Source: Candidatus Nanosynbacter sp. BB002
GTDB taxonomy: Bacteria; Patescibacteriota; Saccharimonadia; Saccharimonadales; Saccharimonadaceae
Length of the DNA stretch: 32,000 nucleotides
Reading direction: 5' to 3'
Assembly (NCBI RefSeq): GCF_037013405.1
Contig: NZ_CP146064.1
Coordinates: forward strand, 570,001 to 602,000
Shown here: one piece after another, positions 14,301 through 31,798 of the stretch
Numbering within the stretch: position 1 is the first letter of the stretch
Layout of the letters: each line of letters opens with the position of its first letter
Made by a program: the position numbers and the translations under genes
The notes under the pieces: model-generated
Seen by the model: only the letters and a program-made list of their open reading frames with translations
Told to the model about the DNA's origin: nothing
Database searches by the model: none

Positions 14301-14669
14301 AGCATGAGGGGCAGCCTGGAAGGTAATATTTTTCTTCGTGACAAAGAAATGCGGCTCTCGGTAAGCGCCGCTCTTAGCTACAACCGTTCCTCCATCAGAA
14401 ACAGCCTGTAAGCCTCGCCTAAAGGTCGCGAACGGTCGCGCTTCGGTACCATTCCCAGAATTGTCATTACCATCTGGCGAAATCCATGCCACATTGGTTG
14501 TCGGCACTGGATAGTTGGTATCCATCGCTTTATATTTTTTGTGGACACTAGCCGCTTTTGCCATAAACGGACTTGTTAGAACCAACGCGAAAACCATCAC
14601 AACCGCAGCTGCTGGTATCGCTAGTTTGGCGACACGTTGATTCCTTCTTGATATACGAAGACGTACCAT
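8385..14669 (-). CDS. Giant (2094 aa) secreted, cell-wall-anchored surface protein: signal peptide, right-handed beta-helix, LRR, helical tandem-repeat stalk, C-terminal beta domain, LAXTG sorting signal
   Basis: A single uninterrupted ORF. The N-terminus MVRLRISRRNQRVAKLAIPAAAVVMVFALVLTSPFMAKA|AS is Sec-type. See the sub-features for domains. SD GGAGAGGGAG lies upstream. Confidence 0.9.
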   Translation of the reverse strand: MVRLRISRRNQRVAKLAIPAAAVVMVFALVLTSPFMAKAASVHKKYKAMDTNYPVPTTNVAWISPDGNDNSGNGTEARPFATFRRGLQAVSDGGTVVAKSGAYREPHFFVTKKNITFQAAPHAEVWMKGSDIVSADRWTKEGNMWKTTGKFRNFCRVCTVNPNPSKEGMAAYPEQMFIDDQPLEQVDAKNKVGPGKFYVEDKNPTTLKDPTNNRAGFNVGTEDDLTYYVGSDPSSGTTEITNRARAFSVGGRQADDGSNFTMKAINVAQYSPVQSWSWDRDLAEDQVGTSMIVVNGRGSVVQDSIFTQSSSVGFNTDAQGARIVNNKFIGNGGNGAGANRAHNTTFENNIFTENNAANYLTNGSVCLAWCTVSEIKVTHIENFTFRGNVVDNSKNPASTGNDYYVRNGTAGVWCDEGCIKAKIVNNFFINTTTAIFDEVSDGTIIASNIIEGSGAGIGVSSSSNSKVYNNTISRTNRPIMLNEDARTDGCNERDRNNPQICKSLESWSAGKGLSWNLTGLEMYNNIISSRAVISGDTGAPLWSYPVRSTGGPNHTGPGTYTNDMFKGFDYNAYYRSSLQNEGTIMTWDLADVPNRLDILFANVKDIAKDSRVRSSIDGRDTHSFDLFGTRANNPYFIKEAEQNTDYRKSNYNLKAGSPAIGSGKPLSAEVASAIDPSGQHVRPGVAVNRGALVNAYMDSTNSPTPPQPPAAQGVNIPDARLRQLLNKRLAEISGKTRSDAQAITAQEMLTIDRMYVDNTGNITEDQRIKDLTGLEYAKNVTELSLGNHAITNLQPLSGLTKLRALQLSGNKVADIQPLAGLSELRSVNLSENVVTNYSPLSSLNKLEQVSMSGTNQTLDLSTFAGSKNSLKKISFYDYGRKTKVVNAQSLVGAPALTSLRLTGGQLSEDEIAAIGRMTQLTELRLDYSTIMNAQPLAGLNHLTSLKLENQQGSMTTESEVFSSPLKDAAGAPIAIENTATLVNEAAGKLKVAAPVYDGQPHALQANWNKQITINGKPFAFSGTLHVTATLPKSDLSALRTAIANAEKEPAYITNDATVKQALAKAKEVEKQPNPAATAIQKAANDLNTAVTNAKKKEADAQTAAEQAVAQAEHNQDPDDVTSANAKVAAVQDPTKKQAFQDRLNQVTANVTAARNALSALITKAKDPATTAGMSQETKDAVAAQVTQAEQVAANAGASVAELNAAKAALQAKLDALRPDLSALRTAIANAEKEPAYITNDATVKQALAKAKEVEKQPNPAATAIQKAANDLNTAVTNAKKKEADAQTAAEQAVAQAEHNQDPDDVTSANAKVAAVQDPTKKQAFQDRLNQVTANVTAARNALSALITKAKDPATTAGMSQETKDAVAAQVTQAEQVAANAGASVAELNAAKAALQAKLDALRPDLSALRTAIANAEKEPAYITNDATVKQALAKAKEVEKQPNPAATAIQKAANDLNTAVTNAKKKEADAQTAAEQAVAQAEHNQDPDDVTSANAKVAAVQDPTKKQAFQDRLNQVTANVTAARNALSALITKAKDPATTAGMSQETKDAVAAQVTQAEQVAANAGASVAELNAAKAALQAKLDALRPDLSALRTAIANAEKEPAYITNDATVKQALAKAKEVEKQPNPAATAIQKAANDLNTAVTNAKKKEADAQTAAEQAVAQAEHNQDPDDVTSANAKVAAVQDPTKKQAFQDRLNQVTANVTAARNALSALITKAKDPATTAGMSQETKDAVAAQVTQAEQVAANAGASVAELNAAKAALQAKLDALRPDLSALRTAIANAEKEPAYITNDATVKQALAKAKEVEKQPNPAATAIQKAANDLNTAVTNAKKKEADAQTAAEQAVAQAESSKTQAAVNAARALVANVQDTAKRTALENRLNAIVIPGPQAPRNKMTVAQPYHRSLTLETSGNSCYNLATAQTASTPDRYNNRVLREGVDFTINCNNQAPAVGFTARVTLTLSRRYANTNRLTIGKIMNGRVYQDITSRVTFGNTPDGKYTTIAYDLTDGGFGDGDGIANGTIIDPVGIYEEEDATQNGNQNANSGGNNPVAKIAKKASNALADTGSNAIVITLGSIAVVATGAWIIIKRRR
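8388..8480 (-). other. Sortase sorting signal, LAXTG type (LADTG + hydrophobic span + KRRR tail)
   Basis: The C-terminal 31 aa are LADTG-SNAIVITLGSIAVVATGAWIII-KRRR. LADTG is encoded at 8480..8466 (cta gct gac acg ggt). Confidence 0.8.
9114..11572 (-). repeat. Tandem coding repeat, period 555 bp (185 aa), 4.43 copies, apparently 100% identical at nucleotide level
   Basis: Identity starts at 9114 (ttcagcc) and ends at 11572. Repeat landmarks fall at 9116, 9671, 10226 and 10781. All translated frames in the ORF track repeat letter-for-letter (62-aa and 119-aa shadow ORFs x4, plus the 881-aa shadow ORF). The unit is DLSALRTAIANAEKEPAYITNDATVKQ...AALQAKLDALRP. Confidence 0.95.
11815..12533 (-). 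other. Leucine-rich repeat (internalin-like, ~22-residue LRR) region of the giant protein; boundaries approximate
   Basis: Repeating LxxLxxLxLxxNxIxxIxPL units: LTGLEYAKNVTELSLGNHAITNLQPLSGLTKLRALQLSGNKVADIQPLAGLSELRSVNLSENVVTNYSPLSSLNKLEQVSMSG... Confidence 0.8.
12570..14492 (-). other. Right-handed parallel beta-helix (pectate-lyase-fold / PbH1-repeat) region of the giant protein; boundaries approximate
   Basis: Typical entry motif ISPDGNDNSGNGTEARPFATFRRGLQAVSDGGTVVAKSGAYRE. Further on there are Asn/Gly-rich coils (IVNNKFIGNGGNGAGANRAHNTTFENNIFTENNAANY, KVYNNTISRTN, EMYNNIIS). Confidence 0.7.
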
Positions 14670-18426: not shown

Positions 18427-18810
18427 ATGCGAAGGTTGAGTGTTTACTTACTACTAATTATTGGTGCAGTTTTCATCACACCCATACTTTTCGACCAGCT
18501 TTGCATGTTCGTGTTTCTTGGCAAGCTTCCGTTTTTGAACGTTAATTTGTCAGCTAATTCCATGATTATTTTCTGGATCGCCCTTGTGCCAATCTGCCGC
18601 ATTTTGCGAGCAGCCATTCCGGTATCATTTGACGATATCAAAGAACTCATCCAATACATTTCCCGAAAACACATAAACAACAGCGTGTTGTACCAGAGCC
18701 ATGATCTAACCTTGCTATTTATCTATCTGACGCATGAAACCAAGAAAGCAAAAACGAGCGAGCCAGACACCCCTATGGGCGCCCAAAAGCTTGCTCCATC
18801 TTTAACCTAA
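18427..18810 (+). CDS. Hypothetical small membrane protein
   Basis: ORF 18358..18810; the ATG at 18427 gives [32 protein letters not shown]..., with two predicted TM helices. No recognisable family. Its 3' end overlaps the convergent sbcB stop by 4 nt. Confidence 0.4.
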
Positions 18811-20219
18811 ACGATAGGCAGCACCGCTTCTACCCACAACTGTAGTTCCTGTAAAATGAACTGCTGTTCGTCGGTCGCTGTCGGCGCCAAACGCTGCAAG
18901 GCTGCCATAAATTGCGGTAGTTGCGTCTGCAGGCGCTGAGCCCGCCACGTTTCCCACTGCGCCAGGTCATCTTCGCTGAGTGAGCGCGGAAAGTTGCGGG
19001 CTTTGTAGTGGAGTAATAATGGCGTCAACCGCTCGTCCTGAAATTCTGGATGAAAATCAGCTAGCTCGCGCTCATCGGCATTGCGTACCGCTTCTACCCG
19101 CAGGCGGTCACGGTCGTTCAAAAAGCCATCATATAACTGTGCTTCTGGATCGGGCAGTTTTTTGAAGGCTGGCTTGTTTTCAAAAATAGTCCGTAATTTT
19201 TCGGCAAAGTCCGGATGATTCAGTAAGATGTGTTGATGCTGCTGAATAGTCTCTGTACTAAGCGAAATTTTCTGCCAGCCATCACCTTGTTCCAGCACAC
19301 CCAGCGGCGCCACCGCCGGACAACGATTGTATTGTAATTCTTTGACCGGTAATTTGACGAAATACTCAGCTTGCCGCTCCTCCCACGAGGCAAATAGTTT
19401 TGCTGACAATTCCTCCACGCTCAGCCCAACAAACGGCGTTGGATCGTACCGCAGGTCATAGACAACCACGCCACCGTTTCGACTGGTTGTCAGTGGAAAA
19501 GCCACCGTGGTTTTAGCAAATTCTTTATCGTAACGCCCGCTGGCGTAAACAAACGGTTTTTTGTCGTCCACATTGACCAGCTGCTGGACTACTTTTTTGT
19601 CACGCATTTTTAGTAAATAGTCATACAGCTGCGGCTGTTTTTGCTTGATCAATTTCGTCACGGCAATCAGCGCCGTTACGTCCGCCAAGGCGTCATGGGC
19701 ATTTTCGTGCGCAATACCGTTGGCGCTGGTGATCAATTCCAAGCGGTTACTTGGCTCACCTTTAGCATCAAGTGGCCACTTGATCCCCTCTGGCCTGAGT
19801 GCCCTGGTCAGTCGCACCACATCCAGCATATCCCAACGCGATCGACCTTCCTTCCAGCTCCATTCATACGGGTCATGAAAATTACGCCACAACAAATGGC
19901 GAATGAACTCATCGTCAAATCGAATATTATTAAAGCCAACCGCAATAGTATCCGGCGTGAAAATCTCCTCGCTGAGCATCCGCGTAAACTGCGCCTCGCT
20001 GTAGCCTTCCTCGACCGTTTTTTGCGGCGTGATGCCGGTTACCATCAGCGCATCAGGACTCGGCAGTGTATCATCATTCAGCGTCACCAGCAAATTGTAC
20101 GGCTCGCCAATCGGCTCAAGGTTCATATCCGTCCGCTGCCCAGCAAACTGCATGATGCGGTCTTGCCGCGGATTCAGCCCGCTGGTTTCGAGGTCGTAGA
20201 AGAAGAATGTTTGCGCCAT
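18807..20219 (-). CDS. sbcB: Exodeoxyribonuclease I (ExoI)
   Basis: 470 aa, collinear with E. coli SbcB. Shared segments include TFFFYDLETSGLNP..DRIMQFAGQRTD (Exo I motif), GFNNIRFDDEF, YDPYEWSW..GRSRWDMLDV.R...ALRPEGI.WP, HDALADV, NRCP..AP, and a C-terminal LLHYKARNFP. Confidence 0.93.
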   Translation of the reverse strand: MAQTFFFYDLETSGLNPRQDRIMQFAGQRTDMNLEPIGEPYNLLVTLNDDTLPSPDALMVTGITPQKTVEEGYSEAQFTRMLSEEIFTPDTIAVGFNNIRFDDEFIRHLLWRNFHDPYEWSWKEGRSRWDMLDVVRLTRALRPEGIKWPLDAKGEPSNRLELITSANGIAHENAHDALADVTALIAVTKLIKQKQPQLYDYLLKMRDKKVVQQLVNVDDKKPFVYASGRYDKEFAKTTVAFPLTTSRNGGVVVYDLRYDPTPFVGLSVEELSAKLFASWEERQAEYFVKLPVKELQYNRCPAVAPLGVLEQGDGWQKISLSTETIQQHQHILLNHPDFAEKLRTIFENKPAFKKLPDPEAQLYDGFLNDRDRLRVEAVRNADERELADFHPEFQDERLTPLLLHYKARNFPRSLSEDDLAQWETWRAQRLQTQLPQFMAALQRLAPTATDEQQFILQELQLWVEAVLPIV

Positions 20220-20224
20220 GATTA

Positions 20225-21130
20225 TTAATCGTTGTTAATTGCCGCTATTGCTTCTCGAGCAAGAAACCGTTTAGAGCGCTCAGGGCCAGGTATGAGATCT
20301 TTTTCTCCGTGCGACAAATTGTACACATCCAGCTTCAATGCCTTTGCAGCATCCGAGCGCGTATCATCTCTCCATTCCCTAATGATAGGTGAACGAAGAG
20401 TCTCGTCCACTGATGCCTGAGGGTCAACCGACGCTTCTATAAGTACCTCTTCTGGCACATGAATCCTACCGTCTTCCCAGCGCAATTTCAGATGGTTTAA
20501 TGCAATCAACTGTTCAACGTTCTCCCCAAAATAATCAGATACAGCAGGAGTGCGCAGCTCAGCACCCGCCAGGGCCAAATGTACATTGTACGCCCCGCCC
20601 AGTTTATGATAAATTTTCTTCAATTCTTCCGCGCTCAACGCAGGTTGTTCCTCTGGTCTCACATAGTCGGCCTTCGTTGCGTCAAGCCAGTCAGCATAAT
20701 ATCCAGCCGCCTTTTCAGAACCAAACTGTTTCTTTTTAAGGCCAGCCAATACATACTGTGTCAATTTGCCAACTGGCCCATCAAGCAGCGATTCAACATT
20801 TCCCTTACGAACTTCTACCGCTAGGCGCCCGACGTATTCTCTAGGCTGATTTTTCAAATAATGATCACCACTGAGCGGCTCCTCACCCCGCAACGCTCTG
20901 AGAATATCGTTCTGTGCGTCCTTAAAAGCCACATGCCTCCGGACGTTGGGACCAAAATGATGACGACGTACCGCAGGAGCAAACGTAAGCTCCAACGAGG
21001 TCAACCCGACAGCCCCAACCGCCCCTACGGTGGCCTCTCGATTTGATTTATATGCAATTTTGTTTTCCAGTCGCCCGATCTCCCAATAGCTCGGTACGGT
21101 CATCTGCCGCTCTGTGTTACTACTACCCAT
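20225..21130 (-). CDS. Hypothetical protein (301 aa), co-transcribed with sbcB (5-nt spacer)
   Basis: Clear SD GGAGG (21139..21135) 4 nt before ATG 21130. There is only a faint local resemblance to the GR-x-Y-x-P-x-E-x-L segment of squalene/phytoene synthases (EDGRIHVPEEVL). That is not enough to assign a family. Confidence 0.6.
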   Translation of the reverse strand: MGSSNTERQMTVPSYWEIGRLENKIAYKSNREATVGAVGAVGLTSLELTFAPAVRRHHFGPNVRRHVAFKDAQNDILRALRGEEPLSGDHYLKNQPREYVGRLAVEVRKGNVESLLDGPVGKLTQYVLAGLKKKQFGSEKAAGYYADWLDATKADYVRPEEQPALSAEELKKIYHKLGGAYNVHLALAGAELRTPAVSDYFGENVEQLIALNHLKLRWEDGRIHVPEEVLIEASVDPQASVDETLRSPIIREWRDDTRSDAAKALKLDVYNLSHGEKDLIPGPERSKRFLAREAIAAINND

Positions 21131-21190: not shown

Positions 21191-22573
<1,383 letters not shown>

Positions 22574-23692
22574 TTAATGAATATAATTATAAGCGCCTGG
22601 GTTGGTCAACTCACGATGAGTGATGACATTATAGCCAGCGAAGTTCATGTCACTCACAAACACCCGACCGTTCTCAACCCTGTCAACGATTCCAACGTGT
22701 CCGTAGTAGCCACCTGAGCTCTGGAAGATAGCACCCGGAGCTGGCGTCTTGTTGACCGTAAAACCAGCAGCACGTGCACTCGCAGCCCAAGTATTGGCGT
22801 TACCCCAGAAGCTACCGATTGGACGACCAAGTGCCAAGCGTCGCTCATATGAGTACCATGTACAGTTACCTGGTGCGTATCGGTTACCAACAGAAGCAGC
22901 GACGTTACCGTAACTTACGCCACTATAACCAGAATGACTATTACTGCTTCGTCCACCGCGCGGTGCGACATACCCTGGACGCTCATTTTCTGGCAGCTCA
23001 CCACCAGGCAACACGATGCGCGTATTTACCGTTGGCTGTGCCACGCGATCTAGTGAGTTATACAATAAGACTCGCTCAGCATCAACCTTATACTTTGAAG
23101 CGATAGCTGCGATGGTATCACCTTCCTTAACAGTGTAAACCACACCATCAACTTGTGGTACCAACAGTGTCCTACCCGGTTCAACAGCGTCAGAGGTCAT
23201 ATTGTTTGCCCAACGCAGCGTTTGAGTTGAAATCTTGAACTTGGCAGCAATTTTAGCTAAATCATCACCCGGCTTAGTAACATATTCGGTAATACCACGC
23301 TGAGACGACGTTTCCGGTTGGATAAGCTGCGGCTTAGAGATAACCTCTGCGTCAGTTTGAGCTAACTGCTTCTGGATTTGCAAAGAAGTAGTTGCTTCGC
23401 GCAAGTCACCAGCAGATGGTAAATCAGTAGCCTCTGCTAAACTAGCGACAGCGTCAGCCACTTCCAATTGATCGACTGACATTTTTTCCTTACTTGTGGT
23501 TGTAGACTTTGGATTTGGGTTGGCAACCTGAGACTCTTGGGCGGAAACCTCCACTCCAGTAACCCCGGTCCCCTGATGATAATTATTAATAGTCAAAAAT
23601 GAAACAATAAGTGCAAATAGGGCTACATAGATAGAAGCTGACCGTACTCGCGCTAGACGACTCTGTCGAGTCTTTGATGTGTTACGAATAAT
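22574..23692 (-). CDS. Secreted/membrane-anchored peptidoglycan hydrolase: signal anchor + 2 x LysM + CHAP amidase/peptidase domain
   Basis: LysM1 is YVTKPGDDLAKIAAKFKISTQTLRWANNM and LysM2 is YTVKEGDTIAAIASKYKVDAERVLLYNSL. The CHAP domain has Cys in GNCTWYSYERR and His in YYGHVGIV. The canonical-start ORF is 22574..23596 (TTG). I extend to ATT 23692 because the frame stays open and encodes the missing signal anchor (see finding). Confidence 0.85.
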   Translation of the reverse strand: MIRNTSKTRQSRLARVRSASIYVALFALIVSFLTINNYHQGTGVTGVEVSAQESQVANPNPKSTTTSKEKMSVDQLEVADAVASLAEATDLPSAGDLREATTSLQIQKQLAQTDAEVISKPQLIQPETSSQRGITEYVTKPGDDLAKIAAKFKISTQTLRWANNMTSDAVEPGRTLLVPQVDGVVYTVKEGDTIAAIASKYKVDAERVLLYNSLDRVAQPTVNTRIVLPGGELPENERPGYVAPRGGRSSNSHSGYSGVSYGNVAASVGNRYAPGNCTWYSYERRLALGRPIGSFWGNANTWAASARAAGFTVNKTPAPGAIFQSSGGYYGHVGIVDRVENGRVFVSDMNFAGYNVITHRELTNPGAYNYIH

Positions 23693-23889
23693 CGTTCTCC
23701 TGCATTGACGTTACCGCCAGTGCTACTACCATAATGAGTCTTTCTTCTCGCAATAGAACAGGATACGTTGTCGACCTAATAATTAGTGATATTTCATAAA
23801 CGATTAGTTTTGTGCTGTATCCGTACGACCGTTTTGGTAGGCTCAACCTCAGACAGCCAAAACAAAGTTAACTGTTCATGGTTAAGCTG
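23693..23889 (-). promoter_or_regulatory. Long (~200 nt) 5' leader of the LysM-CHAP gene; candidate cis-regulatory RNA
   Basis: This is the distance between the consensus promoter at 23896..23924 and the SD/start region. It contains a 7-bp hairpin (GTTTTGG 23863..23857 with CCAAAAC 23837..23831) and a long-range GGATAC/GTATCC pair (23822..23817 with 23766..23761). I recognise no riboswitch consensus. Confidence 0.35.
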
Positions 23890-23948: not shown

Positions 23949-25013
23949 TCAAGATTGCTGACATTTTTGATGACAATGCGCCTTGGTATTAGCAGTGTGC
24001 TCGGCATCTGTTTTAGCAAAATAGGTTACATTATCATCGCCACTGAGGAAAAAGAGGTAATCTGTCTGTGCCGGGTCAGCAACCGCATTCAGTGCACTTA
24101 GCCCGGGAGTAGCTATCGGTCCCGGCGGCAACCCTTTGTGCACGCGAGTATTGTATGGGGAGTCAAGCTGCGTATCACGAGTGACACCCATCTTGTCAGC
24201 AGCATACTGATAGGTCACATCCGACCCTAAGTTCATGCCGGCTTTCATCCTGTTATAAAATACGCTAGCAATCTTTCGCTGATCTTCACAGACTTCAGTA
24301 CCTACACCGCAGCCGATTGACTCTTTCTGAACGATAGAAGCGAGCGTTATACCCTGATACAGCGTCAATCCGCGTTTTTTGAACTTTTCTTCCAAATTAT
24401 TTTTTCTGGCTACTTGATCAAACTCTGCTAATGCACGCTGAATTGCCGATTTGGCGGTTGCATCACCGCTCATAAAATACGTATCACCATAAACAAACCC
24501 TTCAAGATCAGCTCCTGCCGGGCGTGATTTGAAGACATAGCTATCGTAGTCAGCCTTAAAGGCGGATTCAATATCGGCATCGTTATATCCAGCTTTTTTG
24601 AGGGCGCTTTCGACTGAGCGATAATCTTTTCCGCGTAACGTACCGTCAGGGTAGAAGCGAACAGCCATCTCATCAGATTGACCGTCGATCAGATGTTTGA
24701 TGATCTCAGGTGTTGACTGCGATGGCTTAACAGCATACACGCCGACGTTAAAACGAGCATCAATTCGCTTCAATTTGATATAGCCCAAAAATGCGTACCG
24801 ACTGCGGATAAGTTTCTTTTCTTCCAGAGCAGATGCCACCTGAGGAGCTGTCATGCCGCTGGTGATATTGACCCGCGTTACTGTCTGGTCGCCTGTGTTT
24901 ACTGCCGAAAGATTGTGTATATACCAACCAGCTCCAGCTGCAGCAGATAAACCGAGCACTGCCACCAAGCCAGCTACCACAATCATCCATTTTCTCGACT
25001 TACGAATCTGCAT
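23949..25013 (-). CDS. mltG: Endolytic murein transglycosylase MltG (YceG-like)
   Basis: The best start is ATG 25013 (MQIRKSRKWMIVVAGLVAVLGLSAAAGAGWYI), an N-terminal TM anchor. YceG core: LASIVQKES (catalytic Glu), VFYNRMKAGMNLGSDVTYQY, YNTRVHKGLPPGPIATPG, YLFFLSGDDNVTYFAKTDAEH. Confidence 0.9.
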   Translation of the reverse strand: MQIRKSRKWMIVVAGLVAVLGLSAAAGAGWYIHNLSAVNTGDQTVTRVNITSGMTAPQVASALEEKKLIRSRYAFLGYIKLKRIDARFNVGVYAVKPSQSTPEIIKHLIDGQSDEMAVRFYPDGTLRGKDYRSVESALKKAGYNDADIESAFKADYDSYVFKSRPAGADLEGFVYGDTYFMSGDATAKSAIQRALAEFDQVARKNNLEEKFKKRGLTLYQGITLASIVQKESIGCGVGTEVCEDQRKIASVFYNRMKAGMNLGSDVTYQYAADKMGVTRDTQLDSPYNTRVHKGLPPGPIATPGLSALNAVADPAQTDYLFFLSGDDNVTYFAKTDAEHTANTKAHCHQKCQQS

Positions 25014-25410
25014 AGTGTACCTCCAAATAATCCTGCAAAATGATGCTGGCAGCCTCAGCGTCAATCTCACCTTTATCTTTAACGCGACCTAACCGACGTT
25101 CAGCTTCAACGCTACTGAGCGACTCATCTTGATAAACCAGCTCAGCATCAAGCTCAATCTCAGAAAAACCATCAACAAACTGCTCTACAAAAGCTGTCTG
25201 TTTGGTTGGTTCGCCCGACTGATTGCGCGGATAGCCAACGACAATGATGTCAATATCATGACGTAATACTGTTTCCGCCAACTTGGTAAAAATCTCATCA
25301 TTATTCTCCAGCCAACCAAACGGCACAGCGATTCTGACTGAGGTATCAGCCATAGCCAAACCAATTCGTCGTTCACCGACGTCTAGTGCCAGCAAATTCT
25401 TACCGGCCAT
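25000..25410 (-). CDS. ruvX: Holliday-junction resolvase-like / pre-16S rRNA nuclease RuvX (YqgF)
   Basis: 136 aa. LLALDVGERRIGLAMAD, IIVVGYPRNQSGEPT, DESLSSVEAE. It overlaps the mltG start by 14 nt and the upstream gene's end by 11 nt. Confidence 0.92.
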   Translation of the reverse strand: MAGKNLLALDVGERRIGLAMADTSVRIAVPFGWLENNDEIFTKLAETVLRHDIDIIVVGYPRNQSGEPTKQTAFVEQFVDGFSEIELDAELVYQDESLSSVEAERRLGRVKDKGEIDAEAASIILQDYLEVHYADS

Positions 25411-27025
25411 TATCCAATTTAAATTCTATACTAATATGTTTGTCATTATTTGGCACAGTGCGTACCCAAAACGGTGAGAATTTCGTATCAACATCTTGCA
25501 CGCCTTCAATTGATTCAAGGCTAGACTGGACATCACCATAGTTCCGACCTTTTACCTGCTCCTTGACTTTGTGCTCATCAATCTCTGGGCCAATCTTTGC
25601 ATTTGCTGTTAATCGAACTTGCACGGCATTGTTGCGCTCACTGTACTGCGCAAATTTTACCTCATTAGACCCATCATTATAGATCTTCTGGTTCTTCTTG
25701 CTACCAATCTCTTTCTTGAGCGTGTCCTCCAAGAACTGCTTCATATCAGAGCGATCAATACCCTGCATACTGGCTGTCACCGTTGTTTTCAACTGAACTG
25801 TACCACTGGCTTCATGGTCAACCGCCACTGAAGGCGTAGGGTTTGAGCGAGCCTCTTGGTAGCTTTCATTGATGACGATGCTTGAAGATGGGAATAGTGC
25901 TTTGACTGCTGATTGCAGTGAAGCGTCTTTTTGGGCGTCAAGCTTAACTTTAGCTTTGGCAACATCATCAGCCGACACCACAGTCACTTCCCGACTCGAG
26001 CCGCCACTCATTGCGGTGCCCGCCGCCGAAAAGCCGCTCACATTTGAAGAGTAGCTTCGTGACGATAGATTGTATTCACTACCAACCTGAGTTGCTTGCA
26101 CCTTGACGGTTGCCACCGATTGGATGACACCGCCAGGACCAATTGAGGTGCCCGACAAGCTGGCTGGCTCTGTGCTGACAAACGTATAATCGCCCGACGA
26201 GAAGGACGTTCCAGCCGGAATTGTTAGCGTCAAGCTTGATACCGATGTTCGAACAAGGTGCATCGTACCACTTGCTTTTTCACCAACCTTTTTCTTGCCC
26301 GTAGGAGTAAAATCAACAGAGATTTCTTTCTTTTGTTCTTGACGCAATGACTTGATGGTATTGTTAGCAGCATCAACTTTGCCATCTTGCTTTAATGTGA
26401 CTGATTTATCAACGGTAGAGGTGGTCGTTTTGGCTGTGATCACCACTGTAGCATGCGGCGCAAACCAAATCGCCCAAACCATGAACAGAACAAATAGAAC
26501 GATGCCGCCGCCAATCAAGACTAATTTTTTGCGGAAAACATTAAAATCTGGGACTTTTGGCTTACCTTTGCCTGCTGGCTTAGCAGGTTTTGCTGGCTTT
26601 GTTGGCTTTTCATCCTCGGCTATAGCTGCATCGATAGCATCATCAGCCTTATTTCGTGCTTTTGGCGTCACCTTATCAGCCAATTCACCGACCGGTATCT
26701 CACTACCGTCAATCACATCATCGCCATCATCAATATCGATGGCTGGAATTTCCGCAATCTCTGGGCGAGACTGCAATGTCTTGGCCACTGGGATGCGGGC
26801 TGCGGCTGCCAAACCACTGAGCGCCTGGTCACTGGTAATCAACACGATTCGCTTCTCGGCATTCTCCGCCGCACGATTTAACAATCTCATATTGACCGCG
26901 CTCTGCAATATACCAACCCGTTTAGGAGGCACCAATGCAACGATACGCGCCTTTGAATCTTTTATCTTGCTGACGATGTTGGTGATATCGTCTTCAACAT
27001 CGATATAGATAACGTCTTTGTTCAT
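25400..27025 (-). CDS. Bitopic membrane protein of unknown function (541 aa): conserved-looking ~95-aa cytoplasmic N-domain, acidic then Lys/Pro-rich linker, one TM, ~340-aa Ser/Thr/Val-rich ectodomain
   Basis: N-domain: MNKDVIYIDVEDDITNIVSKIKDSKARIVALVPPKRVGILQSAVNMRLLNRAAENAEKRIVLITSDQ. Linker: KPTKPAKPAKPAGKGKPKVP. TM: LVLIGGGIVLFVLFMVWAIWFAP. The ectodomain segment ASGTMHLVRTSVSSLTLTIPAGTSFSSGDYTFVSTE...VKVQATQVGSEYNL recalls regions sometimes labelled baseplate-J-like; this rests on memory only and is low confidence. The ATG follows the ftsA-like TAA directly. Confidence 0.75.
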   Translation of the reverse strand: MNKDVIYIDVEDDITNIVSKIKDSKARIVALVPPKRVGILQSAVNMRLLNRAAENAEKRIVLITSDQALSGLAAAARIPVAKTLQSRPEIAEIPAIDIDDGDDVIDGSEIPVGELADKVTPKARNKADDAIDAAIAEDEKPTKPAKPAKPAGKGKPKVPDFNVFRKKLVLIGGGIVLFVLFMVWAIWFAPHATVVITAKTTTSTVDKSVTLKQDGKVDAANNTIKSLRQEQKKEISVDFTPTGKKKVGEKASGTMHLVRTSVSSLTLTIPAGTSFSSGDYTFVSTEPASLSGTSIGPGGVIQSVATVKVQATQVGSEYNLSSRSYSSNVSGFSAAGTAMSGGSSREVTVVSADDVAKAKVKLDAQKDASLQSAVKALFPSSSIVINESYQEARSNPTPSVAVDHEASGTVQLKTTVTASMQGIDRSDMKQFLEDTLKKEIGSKKNQKIYNDGSNEVKFAQYSERNNAVQVRLTANAKIGPEIDEHKVKEQVKGRNYGDVQSSLESIEGVQDVDTKFSPFWVRTVPNNDKHISIEFKLDNGR

Positions 27026-28288
27026 TTATATTTTAAGTAATCGATTAATTTTATCCATTAAGCCATTAGCATCTTGGCCACTTACCATTGTATCATATCC
27101 TACGCGCAGCAAGCCCATCGCTGTCACAAATGTGTGGTCAGTGATATCACCTGTTGTATCAGTAATGCCGACCACCTCAGACGGTTTGATGCGCTGAACT
27201 ACTGGCTTCTTTGTGAATGGTAGCTCCTTATACCACGGCTCACTCCCCAAAGCGTCAACCAATTTTTCCAAACTGGCGCCTCCACCACACAGTAAAATCC
27301 TATTTGGCAAATGATCAACACTATCAAACTCGCTTAATGCCAACTCTACCCCGGACAGCCATACCTCAAGGGTCTTATCAATCGCACTATCAAGCCGTTT
27401 CTTGACCGACGGCTTGACGTACTCATGACCAAGATTGAGTTTTAATTTTTCAGCATCTTTATAACTGAGATCAAGCTCCGTGGCAATTGTTCTAGTGAAA
27501 CTGCGACCACCGATGCCAAACATCCTGGTGCCTTCCACGCCACCGTCATTGACCACGGCAATGTCGGTCGTTCCACCACCAACGTCTGCTAAAATTGCAG
27601 TAAATGAACTATTGGCATCTGTCCCCAGCACGCTTCTACTGACCGCAAATGGCTCAGCCGCTACCGCTATCAGCTCTAGCGCCAACTCATCAGCCACCTT
27701 TTCCAGCGCACCGATGTGCACCATTGGCGCAAACGCCGTATAGATCTGCACTGCCACGTCTTTGCCCTGAAAACCGATTGGATTTGACACCTTATAGCCA
27801 TCAATGTGCAAGCTCACCAGGGCCGAGTTGACCAATTTCACTTCGACGTCTTCATTGCCAGTTTCCAGCGCGATCTGTGCTTGAGCTTTGCCTTGTGCTC
27901 GCTCCTGAACTTTTTCGATGATAAATTCCATCTCGGCAACGTCCAACGCTCGTTCTGGCTGCGGACGACGATAGCGGATGGTGTTCGTCATACCTTTGAC
28001 CAATTCTCCAGCGATGCCAATCACGACGCGTCGCGCTTGGACACCCGCCTTTTCCTCAGCTTCCGCCAAGGCTGCTTCACAGTTGGCAACTACGCCAGAT
28101 ATGTCGGCGATCGCTCCAGAGTGCATATCGCCCAGCTCTTGCTGCTTGCGACCAACACCAATCACTTCGATGACATCATTTCGCACTTCAGCGATCAAAG
28201 CCTTAACAGCTTCTGTACCAATATCTAGACTAACTAGTAGATCTCGTTCTTCTTTGTCGGTTTTTTTGAGCAAGTCTTTTAGTACCAT
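27026..28288 (-). CDS. ftsA: FtsA-family actin-like ATPase with C-terminal amphipathic helix
   Basis: 420 aa. Phosphate-1 LVSLDIGTEAVKALIAEV; IGVGRKQQELGDMHSGAIADISG; AEEKAGVQARRVVIGIAG; phosphate-2/adenosine ILADVGGGTTDIAVVNDGG...FGIGGRSFTRTIA...YKDAEKLK. The C-terminal GLMDKINRLLKI resembles the FtsA membrane-targeting helix. No ftsZ is adjacent. Confidence 0.75.
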   Translation of the reverse strand: MVLKDLLKKTDKEERDLLVSLDIGTEAVKALIAEVRNDVIEVIGVGRKQQELGDMHSGAIADISGVVANCEAALAEAEEKAGVQARRVVIGIAGELVKGMTNTIRYRRPQPERALDVAEMEFIIEKVQERAQGKAQAQIALETGNEDVEVKLVNSALVSLHIDGYKVSNPIGFQGKDVAVQIYTAFAPMVHIGALEKVADELALELIAVAAEPFAVSRSVLGTDANSSFTAILADVGGGTTDIAVVNDGGVEGTRMFGIGGRSFTRTIATELDLSYKDAEKLKLNLGHEYVKPSVKKRLDSAIDKTLEVWLSGVELALSEFDSVDHLPNRILLCGGGASLEKLVDALGSEPWYKELPFTKKPVVQRIKPSEVVGITDTTGDITDHTFVTAMGLLRVGYDTMVSGQDANGLMDKINRLLKI

Positions 28289-28295
28289 ACCCTAA

Positions 28296-28324
28296 ATTAT
28301 ATACTGCTGATGCTTTTTGAGCAA
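28296..28324 (-). promoter_or_regulatory. Promoter of the ftsA-like operon: TTGCTC-17 nt-TATAAT, 7 nt before the ATG
   Basis: On the minus strand the -35 is at 28324..28319 and the -10 at 28301..28296, then ttagggt and ATG 28288, with no SD. It lies in the 46-nt gap after the alaS stop. Confidence 0.55.
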
Positions 28325-28334
28325 ACTTTATAGC

Positions 28335-30239
28335 CTATTTTAGTACGGCTTTTACGCGTCGCACACCGGCAGAGCTGGATTCTTCTTTGATTATCTTAAA
28401 TCGTTTACCGTTTGGTGTGCCGTCATCATCCTGAGCCAATTGACCAGTGTGGTCTACGTGCGGACCACCGCAAATTTCGAAGCTGACTCGCTGGTCACCC
28501 TCGCCCATCTGATAAACCTTGACAGTATCGCCGTAGCGGTCACCAAAGGCACCAACTGCGCCCATGTTGAAAGCTTCCTCGGTTGGGTATTCAGTATAGC
28601 TAACAGGCAAGTCAGCGTCAATCCAAGTGTTAACTAGTCTCTCCACCTCGTCCAGCTGTTCACGCGTAACTTTGGCGTCATTGTTAAAGTCAAACCGCAG
28701 ACGTTCAGCAGTGATATTACTGCCGCGTTGCATGACGTGGTCGCCCAATACTCGCCTTAGTGCTGCGTACATCAGATGATTCGCCGTATGCAGTCGACGG
28801 TGTGCCATAGTCTGACCTTCCAGCCCACCTTTAAATGTACCTTTGGCGGCAGTTTGAGAACGCTTACGCTGCTCCGCCATACAGGCATCAAATTCCGCCT
28901 TCCAATCTGCCGCGAGCTGAATATGATGACGCTTGGCAATCTCGACACTCAGTTCATATGGGAAGCCATACGTATCATGCATAGTGAAGATCTCTTGACC
29001 TGTCAATCCGTCAGCAATAAAGCTCAACAAATGCTTCGTACCCTTAAGTAACGTGCGGGCAAAGGCTTTTTCTTCCTTCATCAGTGTAATGATAATCTTA
29101 TCGCGCTGTTCAGCCACCTCTGGGAAATCTTGAATATACAAATCAGCGATGACCGGCACAATTTCCTCGAAAAATGCATCCTGAATGCCCAATTCGTGCG
29201 CAAAACGAATCGCCCGGCGCAACAAACGGCGCATCACATAGCCCTGCTCCTTGTTACTTGGCACGCAACCATCAACCGCCAAAAACGTCGCCGCTCGCAA
29301 ATGATCAGCGATCACCCGCATAGCCTCAGTATGCTCTTCGTACTGTTTGCCGCTCAGGTCTTGTAATTTTTCAATGATCGGCCACATCAAGCTAATTTTA
29401 AAGACATCTGGATCATCGATAGCCGCCGCCGCGATACGCTCCAGGCCCGAACCATGGTCGATATTTGGCTTATCTAACGGCTCAAATACGCCATCGGCCA
29501 CCTTTTTGTAGGCCATAAAGACGTTATTGCCAATCTCCATAAAGCGTCCACAGTCACAGTTTGGATGGCAATGCTCGCCAAAACTTTTATCGTGCTCAAC
29601 CGAGGTGAACTCATAAAACATCTCGCTATCCGGCCCGCATGGATCCCCAATTGGCGTAGTTTCCGGCCCGCCATTGCGACTCCACCAGTTTTTGCTGCCA
29701 TCATAGTAAAAAATCCGCTCACCTGGTTTAATACCGCGTGCATAACCAGTTTCTTCTGAGCCGATATCAGCTTGACCGCTACTTAAACCTGCTTTTTCGT
29801 ATAGTTCCGCCCAAATTTCCGCCGCCTCAGTGTCTTTCGGGATATTATAGCGCTCATCACCGATGTAACAGGTGACGTAAACGCGGTTCATGTCTAGTCC
29901 AACCTCTTCCGACAAGAATTGCCACATCCAATTGATCTGCTCTTTTTTGAAATAATCACCCAAACTCCAGTTACCGAGCATCTCAAAAAAGGTCGTATGG
30001 CGATTGTCGCCAATGTCATCGATATCTTGGGCGCGCAAACAAGTCTGGCTGTCAACGATACGGTTTCCCTCAGGATGCTTGGCCTCGCCCAACAGATAAC
30101 TAATCATCGGCTGCATACCAGAGCCGGTAAATAGCGTAGTTGGGTCGTTGTGCAACACCAGCGGTGCTCGATTGACAACAGCATGACCATTGCTTTTATA
30201 AAAATCGAGGTATTTTTTACGGATATCTTGAGCTTTCAT
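28335..30239 (-). CDS. alaS: Alanine--tRNA ligase, short form (catalytic + tRNA-recognition + editing domains; no C-Ala domain)
   Basis: 634 aa. N-terminus IRKKYLDFYKSNGHAVVNRAPLV..DPTTLFTGSGMQP. Editing-domain zinc motifs HTANHLMYAALRRVLG (HxxxH) and CGGPHV (CxxxH). The protein ends at GVRRVKAVLK, the segment that closes the editing domain in full-length enzymes. Confidence 0.93.
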   Translation of the reverse strand: MKAQDIRKKYLDFYKSNGHAVVNRAPLVLHNDPTTLFTGSGMQPMISYLLGEAKHPEGNRIVDSQTCLRAQDIDDIGDNRHTTFFEMLGNWSLGDYFKKEQINWMWQFLSEEVGLDMNRVYVTCYIGDERYNIPKDTEAAEIWAELYEKAGLSSGQADIGSEETGYARGIKPGERIFYYDGSKNWWSRNGGPETTPIGDPCGPDSEMFYEFTSVEHDKSFGEHCHPNCDCGRFMEIGNNVFMAYKKVADGVFEPLDKPNIDHGSGLERIAAAAIDDPDVFKISLMWPIIEKLQDLSGKQYEEHTEAMRVIADHLRAATFLAVDGCVPSNKEQGYVMRRLLRRAIRFAHELGIQDAFFEEIVPVIADLYIQDFPEVAEQRDKIIITLMKEEKAFARTLLKGTKHLLSFIADGLTGQEIFTMHDTYGFPYELSVEIAKRHHIQLAADWKAEFDACMAEQRKRSQTAAKGTFKGGLEGQTMAHRRLHTANHLMYAALRRVLGDHVMQRGSNITAERLRFDFNNDAKVTREQLDEVERLVNTWIDADLPVSYTEYPTEEAFNMGAVGAFGDRYGDTVKVYQMGEGDQRVSFEICGGPHVDHTGQLAQDDDGTPNGKRFKIIKEESSSAGVRRVKAVLK

Positions 30240-30304: not shown

Positions 30305-30667
30305 TTATTCAGCGGATTCTTCTACTGGCTCTTCAACTGGAGCTTCTTCTTTCGGCTGGTTTTTGCGTAATTTTTCCGGGTTACGGATGGCTTTGTGCTT
30401 GTCAGCAGTTGGTTCTTTAACCCACTTTGGCAATGTGACGCCAGCTTCTTTCAACAACTTAACAACACGTGGTGTTGGCTGAGCACCATTGTCCAAATAT
30501 TTTTGTGCCAATTCAACCTGAATATTTGCTACTTTTGTGTGTGGATTGTAGCTACCAACATAGGCGACAACGCGACCGCTTGATGGGTGGCGCTGCGCTT
30601 CCTGTACAGCTAGGCGGTAGACTGGGTAGCCCTTGCGACCCAAACGTTGCAAACGAATTGCTAACAT
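30305..30667 (-). CDS. rpsP: 30S ribosomal protein S16 with charged C-terminal extension
   Basis: MLAIRLQRLGRKGYPVYRLAVQEAQRHPSSGRVVAYVGSYNPHTK is canonical S16. An extra Lys/Glu/Pro-rich tail of about 35 aa follows. Confidence 0.95.
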   Translation of the reverse strand: MLAIRLQRLGRKGYPVYRLAVQEAQRHPSSGRVVAYVGSYNPHTKVANIQVELAQKYLDNGAQPTPRVVKLLKEAGVTLPKWVKEPTADKHKAIRNPEKLRKNQPKEEAPVEEPVEESAE

Positions 30668-30745: not shown

Positions 30746-31798
30746 TCAATCTGTTTGGATAATCCCGCCGCCCAAACATTCCTTGCCGTCATATAGCACG
30801 GCTGATTGGCCTGGTGCGACGGCACGCTGCGGCTCAACCAGCTTCACTGCCACTTTCTCGCCAGCGTCGTTCATGTGCGCAACTTCCGCATCAATCAACG
30901 GCGCCCGGTGTCGCACCCGAACCTGATAGGCGCCGTCTTTTGGCGGCTGGCCAATCCAGTGAACGTCAGCCAGTGTCAACTCTTTACGCCAGAGATTTTC
31001 ATTATCAATTGAGCGCGACACGTAAACTTCGTTCTTCGCCATATCCTTGCCAACAACATAATACGGCAAGCCGCCACCAATATTTAGACCATGCCGCTGC
31101 CCCAAAGTGTAAAATATCGCCCCATCGTGCCGACCAACAACCACACCTGTTTGCTGATCGATGATATCGCCCGGACTCGTCTCGACATATTCTGACAAAA
31201 ACTCGCGAATCCCCACTTGCCCGACGAAGCAAATCCCCATCGATTCCTTTTTACTAGCCGTCCACAAGCCCCGCTCTTTGGCCATCTCGCGCACCTCAGC
31301 CTTGGTAAAATCACCCAGCGGGAACATGGTCTTTGCGAGTGCCTCCGACGTCACCCGGTAGAGGAAATAGGTTTGGTCTTTATTGTCATCACGAGCTTGC
31401 AGCAAGCGCCCCTCGTTCGTCCTAGCATAATGCCCCGTCGCAATATACTCCGCACCCGCTGCCAACGCCGCCTCCAAAAACAACTTAAACTTCACCTCTT
31501 GATTGCACATCACATCAGGATTTGGCGTGCGACCCGCTTGATATTCGCGAATCATATAGTCAACGACATTTTGCTTGTACTCTTTTTGAAAATCGAACAC
31601 CTGAAAATCGATCCCCAGCCCCACCGCCACGCGCTTGGCATCAGCCACATCTTCTGCCCACGGACAATGCATGCCTGGCAGATCTTCCGACCAGTTTTTC
31701 ATATACACGCCAGTCACCTCGTGGCCTTGCTCAACCAATAGCGCTGCCGCTACCGACGAATCAACGCCGCCCGACATACCGACGAACACCCGAGCCAT
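30746..31798 (-). CDS. mnmA: tRNA 2-thiouridine(34) synthase MnmA
   Basis: 350 aa. PP-loop VGMSGGVDSSVAA, GVYMKNW, catalytic Cys regions (PNPDVMCN, SMGICFVG), and C-terminal GQSAVLYDG..CLGGGII. Confidence 0.95.
   Translation of the reverse strand: MARVFVGMSGGVDSSVAAALLVEQGHEVTGVYMKNWSEDLPGMHCPWAEDVADAKRVAVGLGIDFQVFDFQKEYKQNVVDYMIREYQAGRTPNPDVMCNQEVKFKLFLEAALAAGAEYIATGHYARTNEGRLLQARDDNKDQTYFLYRVTSEALAKTMFPLGDFTKAEVREMAKERGLWTASKKESMGICFVGQVGIREFLSEYVETSPGDIIDQQTGVVVGRHDGAIFYTLGQRHGLNIGGGLPYYVVGKDMAKNEVYVSRSIDNENLWRKELTLADVHWIGQPPKDGAYQVRVRHRAPLIDAEVAHMNDAGEKVAVKLVEPQRAVAPGQSAVLYDGKECLGGGIIQTD

Follow-up and report, generated by a model that had tools for sequence, protein, structure and literature searches.

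What are a gene for an FtsA-like ATPase and the gene of a membrane-spanning protein doing between alaS and ruvX, with no ftsZ beside them? We examined this pair in Candidatus Nanosynbacter sp. BB002 (assembly GCF_037013405.1), in a window of 32,000 nt (NZ_CP146064.1, positions 570,001-602,000); "the window" below is this whole stretch of DNA. A large part of bacterial diversity falls to the Patescibacteria, tiny epibionts whose growth, budding and division are almost unknown. The pair is found throughout the Saccharibacteria and its loss is costly; it appears to join an FtsA paralogue to a membrane-anchored homologue of phage baseplate J proteins, beside wall-cleaving enzymes. Since Southlakia epibionticum is transformable, the pair also offers a genetically tractable entry point. 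The genes themselves have been catalogued before, with their function uncharacterised.

A fixed four-gene unit

The pair is read from the minus strand together with ruvX and mltG:

27026-28288, minus strand: FtsA-like actin-fold ATPase gene, 420 amino acids (aa) (Pfam PF14450, E = 4.3e-16)
25400-27025, minus strand: partner gene, 541 aa, with a bitopic product (open reading frame and AlphaFold2 model)
25000-25410, minus strand: ruvX (YqgF; PF03652, E = 1.3e-28)
23949-25070, minus strand: mltG (YceG; PF02618, E = 1e-65; TIGR00247, 189 bits), likely start ATG at 25013

The partner's ATG immediately follows the TAA of the FtsA-like gene (TAAATG, spacer zero), the ruvX ATG overlaps the partner's stop codon (ATGGCCGGTAA), and the likely mltG ATG (25013) lies inside the end of ruvX, with an overlap of 14 nt with the ruvX stop. 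All three junctions abut or overlap, which makes the four genes translationally coupled. The original prediction had placed two genes between alaS and ruvX, joined without a spacer, and the sequence bears out both the coordinates and the junction.

To see how far this arrangement extends, we took one genome per species, scanned the genomes with a profile of the partner family, and annotated the flanks of the best 80 loci with the window proteins. These loci come from genomes titled Saccharibacteria or Saccharimonadales, except for three that carry another phylum label and a few that carry none. The order FtsA-like gene, partner, RuvX, MltG was found in 80 of the 80, usually with LysM-CHAP and Obg next, and in every one of them (80/80) the partner begins between -4 and +14 nt from the stop codon of the FtsA-like gene. 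Three representatives at 30-33% identity (P0251, P0270 and P0235) show the same order; the P0270 contig begins at the partner gene, and the position of the FtsA-like gene is outside view there. Adjacency to alaS is looser, since in several lineages alaS is separated from the FtsA-like gene by one to four others; what stays invariant is thus the block FtsA-like, partner, ruvX and mltG. This unit is a fixed feature of Saccharibacteria and the pairing is not due to chance: what had been noticed in a single genome recurs in all 80 loci and in the deep lineages. The earlier remark that the FtsA-like gene is not beside ftsZ also holds, there being no ftsZ in the window or in the loci of the 80 relatives.

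An exhaustive search of representatives clustered at 50% identity returned 5118 clusters for the partner family at E <= 1e-3, of which 586 reach E <= 1e-30. The best 150 of these are about 520-600 aa long and align end to end, a few fragments excepted. Among the matches listed, the closest homologues are oral TM7 proteins (98-100% identical), and a search started from a divergent member (P0269) gave, again among the matches listed, Saccharibacteria-labelled proteins only, save one labelled 'Nomurabacteria'. Both orthologues of the pair in S. epibionticum are flagged as core and Patescibacteria-enriched families (PMC10633639); the spread to other classes of Patescibacteria is read from such flags (Wang et al., Meheust et al.) only.

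Two further observations concern these genes. In the deep-branching relative L083 (1700-3238), RuvX and YceG/MltG are called as one fused product of 512 aa, which may hint at a functional link or may be an artefact of gene calling. On the opposite (plus) strand of the window, antisense open reading frames of 218, 140, 105 and 87 aa (one of them at 26352-27008) run across 25400-28300 and overlap the FtsA-like and partner genes. Their translations are of low complexity and rich in Ala, Ser, Thr and Pro, and we took them as shadows of the minus-strand genes.

The FtsA-like protein is probably an extra paralogue

The 420-aa protein had been assigned to the FtsA family, and this stands. It scores 59.9 bits as an FtsA domain against PF14450 (gathering score 31.8), and its nearest relatives in the PDB are the FtsA structures 7q6f and 7q6g (E = 8e-16 for 7q6f), ahead of PilM (1e-8). 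Against the FtsA equivalog model TIGR01174 it reaches 126.4 bits, below the cut-off of 175.85. The SHS2 (1C) domain has no PF02491 match at E <= 0.01, yet the alignment with 7q6f passes through the 1C region, and the top structural matches of the orthologue SEML1_0656 are SHS2-domain proteins (Wang et al. 2023, PMC10633639). In all of 16 diverse orthologues compared, the motifs that bind nucleotide (DIGT, DxGGGTTD and CGGG) are unchanged. The C-terminal amphipathic helix proposed earlier is also found:

27029-27064, minus strand: C-terminal amphipathic helix of the FtsA-like protein, 12-mer GLMDKINRLLKI (hydrophobic moment 0.64)

This 12-mer ranks 4th of 409 windows by hydrophobic moment, membrane targeting is predicted for it, and the tail (xIKDKLNRILRI) is unusually conserved across loci.

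The complete genome of S. epibionticum ML1 holds the same locus (Wang et al. 2023, PMC10633639, Tables S1 and S2), whose genes we equated with those of the window by common gene order, gene sizes and annotation:

SEML1_0657: alaS
SEML1_0656: FtsA-like orthologue, 'pilus assembly protein PilM' by Prokka and K03590/FtsA by KEGG
SEML1_0655: partner orthologue, annotated 'baseplate J/gp47 family protein'
SEML1_0654: RuvX
SEML1_0653: MltG
SEML1_0652: LysM
SEML1_0651: Obg

Elsewhere in this genome a canonical FtsA with an SHS2 domain (SEML1_0174) adjoins FtsZ (SEML1_0175), and both are essential (PMC10633639). We recovered the C-terminus of this canonical FtsA from the published flank of an ftsZ deletion (...SKKSGGFIKTLLSKFKP); it is 28% identical to the window's FtsA-like protein over 71 aa. 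A search with the 90-aa C-terminus found five fragments, one of them on a contig with the order ftsA (C-terminal fragment)-ftsZ-nrdR. A second ftsA-ftsZ locus, which the original prediction had proposed to look for, is thus present in S. epibionticum and on the fragment-bearing contig. Because a separate canonical ftsA-ftsZ exists in a complete genome of a relative, the FtsA-like gene appears to be an extra paralogue, distinct from the divisome FtsA as judged from the canonical locus of relatives.

That the protein is itself the divisome FtsA, displaced from ftsZ, with the partner as an FtsN- or FtsQ-like late division protein, seems very unlikely to us. FtsA is indeed its best match among hidden Markov models and in the PDB, it has the amphipathic C-terminal helix, KEGG places K03590 on the orthologue, and the TM7x transcriptome paper lists TM7x_02800 as 'ftsA'. 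However, the canonical SHS2-bearing ftsA of S. epibionticum is essential and beside ftsZ while the FtsA-like orthologue tolerates insertions, the canonical C-terminus is so little alike, the TIGR01174 score is below its cut-off, and an FtsQ-like protein is encoded elsewhere (SEML1_0275). TM7x_02800 lies far from the TM7x ftsZ (TM7x_00785); given the layout in S. epibionticum, we take it to be probably the FtsA-like paralogue and not the divisome FtsA.

The Prokka label raises a different possibility, that the pair serves as a PilM-type alignment module in an envelope-spanning machine, such as one for pili, competence or secretion, with the partner in place of PilN/PilO. The PF11104 PilM_2 match (5e-9, above the gathering score) agrees with this, as do the textbook binding of PilM to the cytoplasmic N-terminus of a bitopic partner and the fold 'pilus binding domain of G3P' that ECOD gives to one subdomain of the ectodomain. 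The pilM equivalog TIGR01175, however, gives 44.2 bits against a cut-off of 133, and the type IV pilus loci lie elsewhere with their own PilM/N/O, both in TM7x (TM7x_00415-00475 and TM7x_03095-03145, with PilM1 and PilM2) and in S. epibionticum (PilM is SEML1_0104; PMC10633639). The 80 loci hold no ATPase, platform or pilin genes, and the neighbours are housekeeping and wall genes. PilM proteins are not known to carry a C-terminal amphipathic helix, which also counts against a PilM-type module, and we consider such a module quite unlikely. The labels 'PilM' (Prokka) and K03590/FtsA (KEGG) can mislead transcriptome and comparative studies, and the annotation is corrected here.

A defence-system reading was rejected as well: PADLOC has no match for the partner and gives only a 14-bit match for the FtsA-like protein.

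A partner with a conserved cytoplasmic domain and a baseplate-like ectodomain

We modelled the partner with AlphaFold2 from an alignment of 37 sequences (mean predicted local distance difference test score, pLDDT, 84.7). The model agrees with the four-part layout proposed earlier, in which a compact N-domain of about 95 aa, an acidic and then Lys/Pro-rich linker, one transmembrane helix and a beta-rich ectodomain follow one another:

26741-27025, minus strand: N-terminal cytoplasmic alpha/beta domain, aa 1-95 (pLDDT 89-95)
26546-26740, minus strand: disordered linker, aa 96-160 (pLDDT <50 at residues 96-155)
26462-26545, minus strand: single transmembrane helix, aa ~161-188 (helix in the AlphaFold2 model)
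25403-26461, minus strand: extracytoplasmic Baseplate-J/gp6-like beta-rich module, aa 189-541, ~350 aa (Foldseek)

The N-domain has the topology beta-alpha-beta-alpha-beta-alpha, keeps a pLDDT of 89 when modelled alone, and has T15, K20, S42 and K58 as invariant residues, with Ser42 at a helix N-cap. It has no significant fold match in the PDB by Foldseek (best E 0.028, to unrelated beta-alpha-beta segments) and no match there by sequence profile. The linker is first acidic (net -8) and then basic and rich in Lys and Pro (net +6), with eight prolines, and it ends in a conserved juxtamembrane motif, KVP(D/N)F, whose P159 is nearly invariant. Hydropathy (Kyte-Doolittle) peaks at 2.77 at residue 168, and the positive charge is on the N-terminal side of the transmembrane helix.

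Across the 67 loci in which the partner shares under 60% identity with that of the window, the median identities are:

FtsA-like protein: 77%
Partner N-domain: 73%
Partner transmembrane helix: 63%
Partner ectodomain: 45%
Partner linker: 38%

By these values the cytoplasmic parts, that is the FtsA-like protein and the partner's N-domain, appear to be under similarly strong constraint, and the outer part seems to evolve faster.

For the ectodomain, Foldseek found baseplate wedge proteins in the PDB at probability 1.0 (8kea_d, 6e-6; 9euf_I, 9.5e-6; and 9rku), which belong to cyanophage A-1(L), phage phi812 and Agrobacterium phage 7-7-1 (E from about 6e-6 to 2e-4). Among the viral models of BFVD, 'Baseplate J-like' proteins were matched down to E = 5e-7 and aligned across 340-430 columns. 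The TM-scores against baseplate J proteins are low (0.15-0.23, with 10-20% identity), and the arrangement of subdomains therefore differs from theirs. By sequence, the window partner scores 20.7 bits against Pfam Baseplate_J (PF04865), just under the gathering score of 21.1; six of 37 family members match that model at E <= 0.01, and some members match the GlxA barrel (PF21110). As modelled, the ectodomain nevertheless matches a complete J/gp6-type protein over its whole length. The ECOD parse of the S. epibionticum orthologue points the same way, with gp6 domain III, a beta-barrel and a G3P-like domain (PMC10633639). The invariant residues are mostly Gly, Ala and Asn, and none looks catalytic.

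The original prediction could assign the partner to no characterised family. That holds insofar as no characterised family of unrelated function emerged, and searches of NCBIfam, PDB sequences and PHROG gave no match; it does not hold for the ectodomain, which is Baseplate-J/gp6-like by Foldseek. Nor is the partner without relatives, its orthologue being annotated already as a baseplate J/gp47 family protein.

A prophage or tailocin baseplate remnant, with no joint function with the FtsA-like gene, would explain the Pfam and fold similarity to Baseplate J, but we regard it as extremely improbable. The partner family has no PHROG match and no relative in 2.9 million viral contigs, there are no tail or tailocin genes in the window or in the 80 loci, and the protein carries a transmembrane helix and a conserved cytoplasmic domain. 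Its class-wide purifying selection in a fixed operon and the fitness cost of its disruption point the same way, and the conservation data effectively refute this reading.

More room is left for the partner as a surface or host-contact protein, whose J-like ectodomain holds or senses a surface structure and signals inward to the ATPase. Saccharibacteria are epibionts, many essential Patescibacteria-enriched genes have envelope functions, the ectodomain evolves fast (45% against 73-77% for the cytoplasmic parts), and its fold is related to that of baseplate adaptors, phage J/gp6 proteins being holders of fibres. ECOD moreover classes the N-domain of the orthologue as SpoIIAA-like (STAS, a signalling fold; probability 0.888; PMC10633639), which goes with the invariant Ser42 at the helix N-cap. 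We did not reproduce the STAS assignment, however: nothing fell below E = 0.028, and the STAS protein 2ka5 came at Foldseek rank 44 (E = 0.42). The gene is also universal in environmental as well as host-associated lineages, sits in a housekeeping operon and lacks adhesin-like repeats. On balance a host-contact role is unlikely.

Promoter and transcription units

The pair had been credited with a promoter of its own, and the corresponding site can be read in the window:

28319-28324, minus strand: -35-like hexamer TTGCTC (three of six consensus positions matched)
28296-28301, minus strand: -10 hexamer TATAAT, 7 nt upstream of the FtsA-like ATG

The whole site (TTGCTC-17-TATAAT) spans 28324-28296. 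It is missing from our consensus scan because its -35 hexamer matches only three of six positions, and across the region the scan found promoter-like sites no more often than in shuffled sequence. Phylogenetic footprinting is more informative. Among 57 distinct upstream sequences of relatives, 52 have a TA[TAC]AAT box at a distance of 4-17 nt before the start codon of the FtsA-like gene, compared with a chance expectation of about 8% (our own rough estimate). The box often reads TGGTATATAAT, and the sequence flanking it is not conserved. Such an excess over chance argues that the promoter upstream of the FtsA-like gene is probably real, as had been supposed.

The short distance between the -10 box and the start codon points to a leaderless or near-leaderless mRNA, and suggests that leaderless transcripts are common for the FtsA-like/partner operon in Saccharibacteria. 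In the sampled loci (L001-L080) the box often abuts or overlaps the start codon (e.g. GGTATATAATG); the corresponding site of the window is at 28289-28301.

Further downstream lies a second wall enzyme with signals of its own:

22574-23596, minus strand: LysM-CHAP peptidoglycan hydrolase, downstream neighbour (LysM, 1.3e-20; CHAP, 1.4e-18)
23924-23896, minus strand: LysM-CHAP promoter-like site, near-consensus TTGACT-17-TATAAT (consensus scan)
23697-23842, minus strand: lysM-TM7 RNA (RF03005), 5' leader of LysM-CHAP (Rfam, 118 bits, E = 1e-22)

A near-consensus promoter-like site followed by an RNA leader indicates separate regulation. LysM-CHAP thus appears to be a transcription unit apart from FtsA-like/partner/ruvX/mltG, and is probably regulated post-transcriptionally. 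Of the earlier statement that the pair stands directly upstream of wall-cleaving enzymes, the proximity of mltG and LysM-CHAP is borne out, with the amendment that LysM-CHAP falls outside the pair's transcription unit.

Fitness data in S. epibionticum

Transposon insertion sequencing (Tn-seq) of S. epibionticum (Wang et al., PMC10633639) called genes non-essential (NE), essential (ES) or with a growth defect (GD). The partner orthologue was NE/ES/ES and class II essential, becoming essential once the cells had grown out, with reads of 373, 34 and 24 and with insertions falling from 48 in the input DNA to 25, 7 and 2. The FtsA-like orthologue was NE/NE/GD (reads 2427, 660 and 221), its growth defect appearing late. 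RuvX was NE/ES/ES and LysM GD/ES/ES (PMC10633639).

The genome tables of S. epibionticum do not list MreB, MreC, RodZ or SepF, and this makes an extra scaffold for wall placement plausible. They do list an FtsQ-like protein (SEML1_0275), one FtsW/RodA-type protein and PBP2 (PMC10633639). The text of Wang et al. 2023 (PMC10633639) does not discuss the pair, nor do Meheust et al. 2019 or the other literature that we searched, where we found no functional study of it. The pair thus remains uncharacterised, as the original prediction had it, though its genes are catalogued in published tables.

Proposed role

In FtsA-FtsN, PilM-PilN and MreB-RodZ, a bitopic protein with a function in the wall is held at its cytoplasmic end by an actin-fold ATPase on the inner side of the membrane. 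Baseplate J/gp6 modules of phages are non-enzymatic scaffold pieces that oligomerise and form rings. Our leading reading, offered tentatively, is that the pair forms an accessory scaffold of the actin-like kind and links it through the membrane to the remodelling of the wall in growth, budding or septation. Co-translation with ruvX and mltG and the neighbouring LysM-CHAP are the reasons to favour an accessory wall scaffold.

Under this proposal, the four translationally coupled genes would form an operon transcribed from its own leaderless-type promoter. The FtsA-like protein would bind ATP, be anchored by its amphipathic C-terminus to the cytoplasmic side of the membrane, and engage the partner either at its 95-aa N-domain or at the juxtamembrane sequence KVP(D/N)F. 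Positional information would then pass by way of the partner across the membrane to the Baseplate-J/gp6-like module outside, where the ectodomain may oligomerise as a scaffold and organise or restrain the remodelling of peptidoglycan by MltG and LysM-CHAP. The division or elongation module of the original prediction, with its putative actin-like filament, remains a candidate in this form and is partly supported, through the pairing, coupling, topology and paralogy, the conserved promoter, the shared constraint on the cytoplasmic parts and the fitness costs in a relative; what has changed is the family assignment of the partner.

Several points weigh against the proposal. The contact between the FtsA-like protein and the partner is one that we infer, as is that of the ectodomain with peptidoglycan or hydrolases, and the former is the main weakness beside the unequal Tn-seq phenotypes. 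These phenotypes, far stronger for the partner than for the FtsA-like gene, speak against a complex in which each protein needs the other one to one. Part of the effect of insertions in the partner may come from polarity on ruvX, which overlaps it and is essential; the tolerance of insertions in the upstream FtsA-like gene argues against strong polarity. MltG was NE/NE/NE, i.e. non-essential in Tn-seq (PMC10633639), and the co-location with ruvX and mltG could be historical rather than functional. Finally, the C-terminal tail of the FtsA-like protein has no aromatic residues and may be a protein-binding peptide, not a membrane anchor.

A bolder version of the accessory scaffold, which we hold to be doubtful, has a second, FtsZ-independent FtsA-type scaffold whose dedicated partner would be an exapted baseplate wedge (gp6/J) homologue, forming an extracellular ring or lattice in the wall that marks where MltG and CHAP enzymes open the peptidoglycan, be it for the budding of swarmers or at the host-contact pole. 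If true, such a ring or lattice would put a baseplate protein to a cell-biological use undescribed in any bacterium.

Other features of the window

From 21 to 32 kb, the window is a run of minus-strand genes, mnmA through obg, by open reading frames, Pfam and NCBIfam. In addition to those given above, they include:

30746-31798, minus strand: mnmA
30305-30667, minus strand: rpsP
28335-30239, minus strand: alaS, short form, 634 aa, upstream neighbour of the pair (NF002436, 599 bits)
21191-22510, minus strand: obg

Between obg and an exonuclease I-like gene (18807-20219) lies a 301-aa open reading frame (20225-21130, minus strand) with no Pfam match, found again at the same position in the closest relatives only. 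A giant open reading frame of 2094 aa (8385-14669, minus strand) matches NosD/beta-helix and leucine-rich repeat models and contains five copies in tandem at a spacing of 555 bp (185 aa); over a 300-nt reference segment four of these are 100% identical. The copies cause the strong skew, in both GC and AT, at 9-11.6 kb. Its product is probably a surface or adhesion protein.

Comparison with known systems

With FtsA-FtsN, the pair has in common an actin fold with an insert at the FtsA 1C position, conserved nucleotide-binding motifs and a C-terminal amphipathic helix, and an FtsA-like gene next to that of a bitopic protein with a cytoplasmic N-terminus. It differs in that the FtsA-like protein is below the equivalog cut-off, has no SHS2 Pfam match and does not adjoin ftsZ, and in that a relative has a separate essential FtsA and can dispense with the FtsA-like orthologue at early Tn-seq time points. 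Where FtsN has a short peptide and a SPOR domain, the partner carries a folded N-domain and an ectodomain of the Baseplate-J type.

PilM-PilN offers the same gene order, an FtsA-family ATPase immediately upstream of a bitopic protein, and in the known system the ATPase binds the cytoplasmic N-terminus of its partner. Here, in contrast, there is no pilN/pilO fold and no pilus gene nearby, the pilM score is far under the cut-off, and the FtsA-like protein has its own predicted membrane-binding helix.

The resemblance to MreB-RodZ is one of architecture: an actin-like protein goes together with a bitopic one that consists of a folded cytoplasmic N-domain, a charged or proline-rich linker, one transmembrane helix and a beta-rich outer domain, the genes being linked with MltG-type wall enzymes and MreB and RodZ being unlisted in the relative's tables. 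The partner, however, has no relation to RodZ in sequence or fold (it has no helix-turn-helix), and the ATPase is of the FtsA type, not the MreB type.

From the phage proteins Baseplate J/gp47/T4 gp6 (PF04865), the partner differs in its low identity (10-20%) and global TM-scores and in being membrane-anchored, extracytoplasmic and fused to a cytoplasmic domain, in a housekeeping context without tail genes. Its 350-aa ectodomain nevertheless aligns with them domain by domain (Foldseek probability 1.0, E down to 5e-7).

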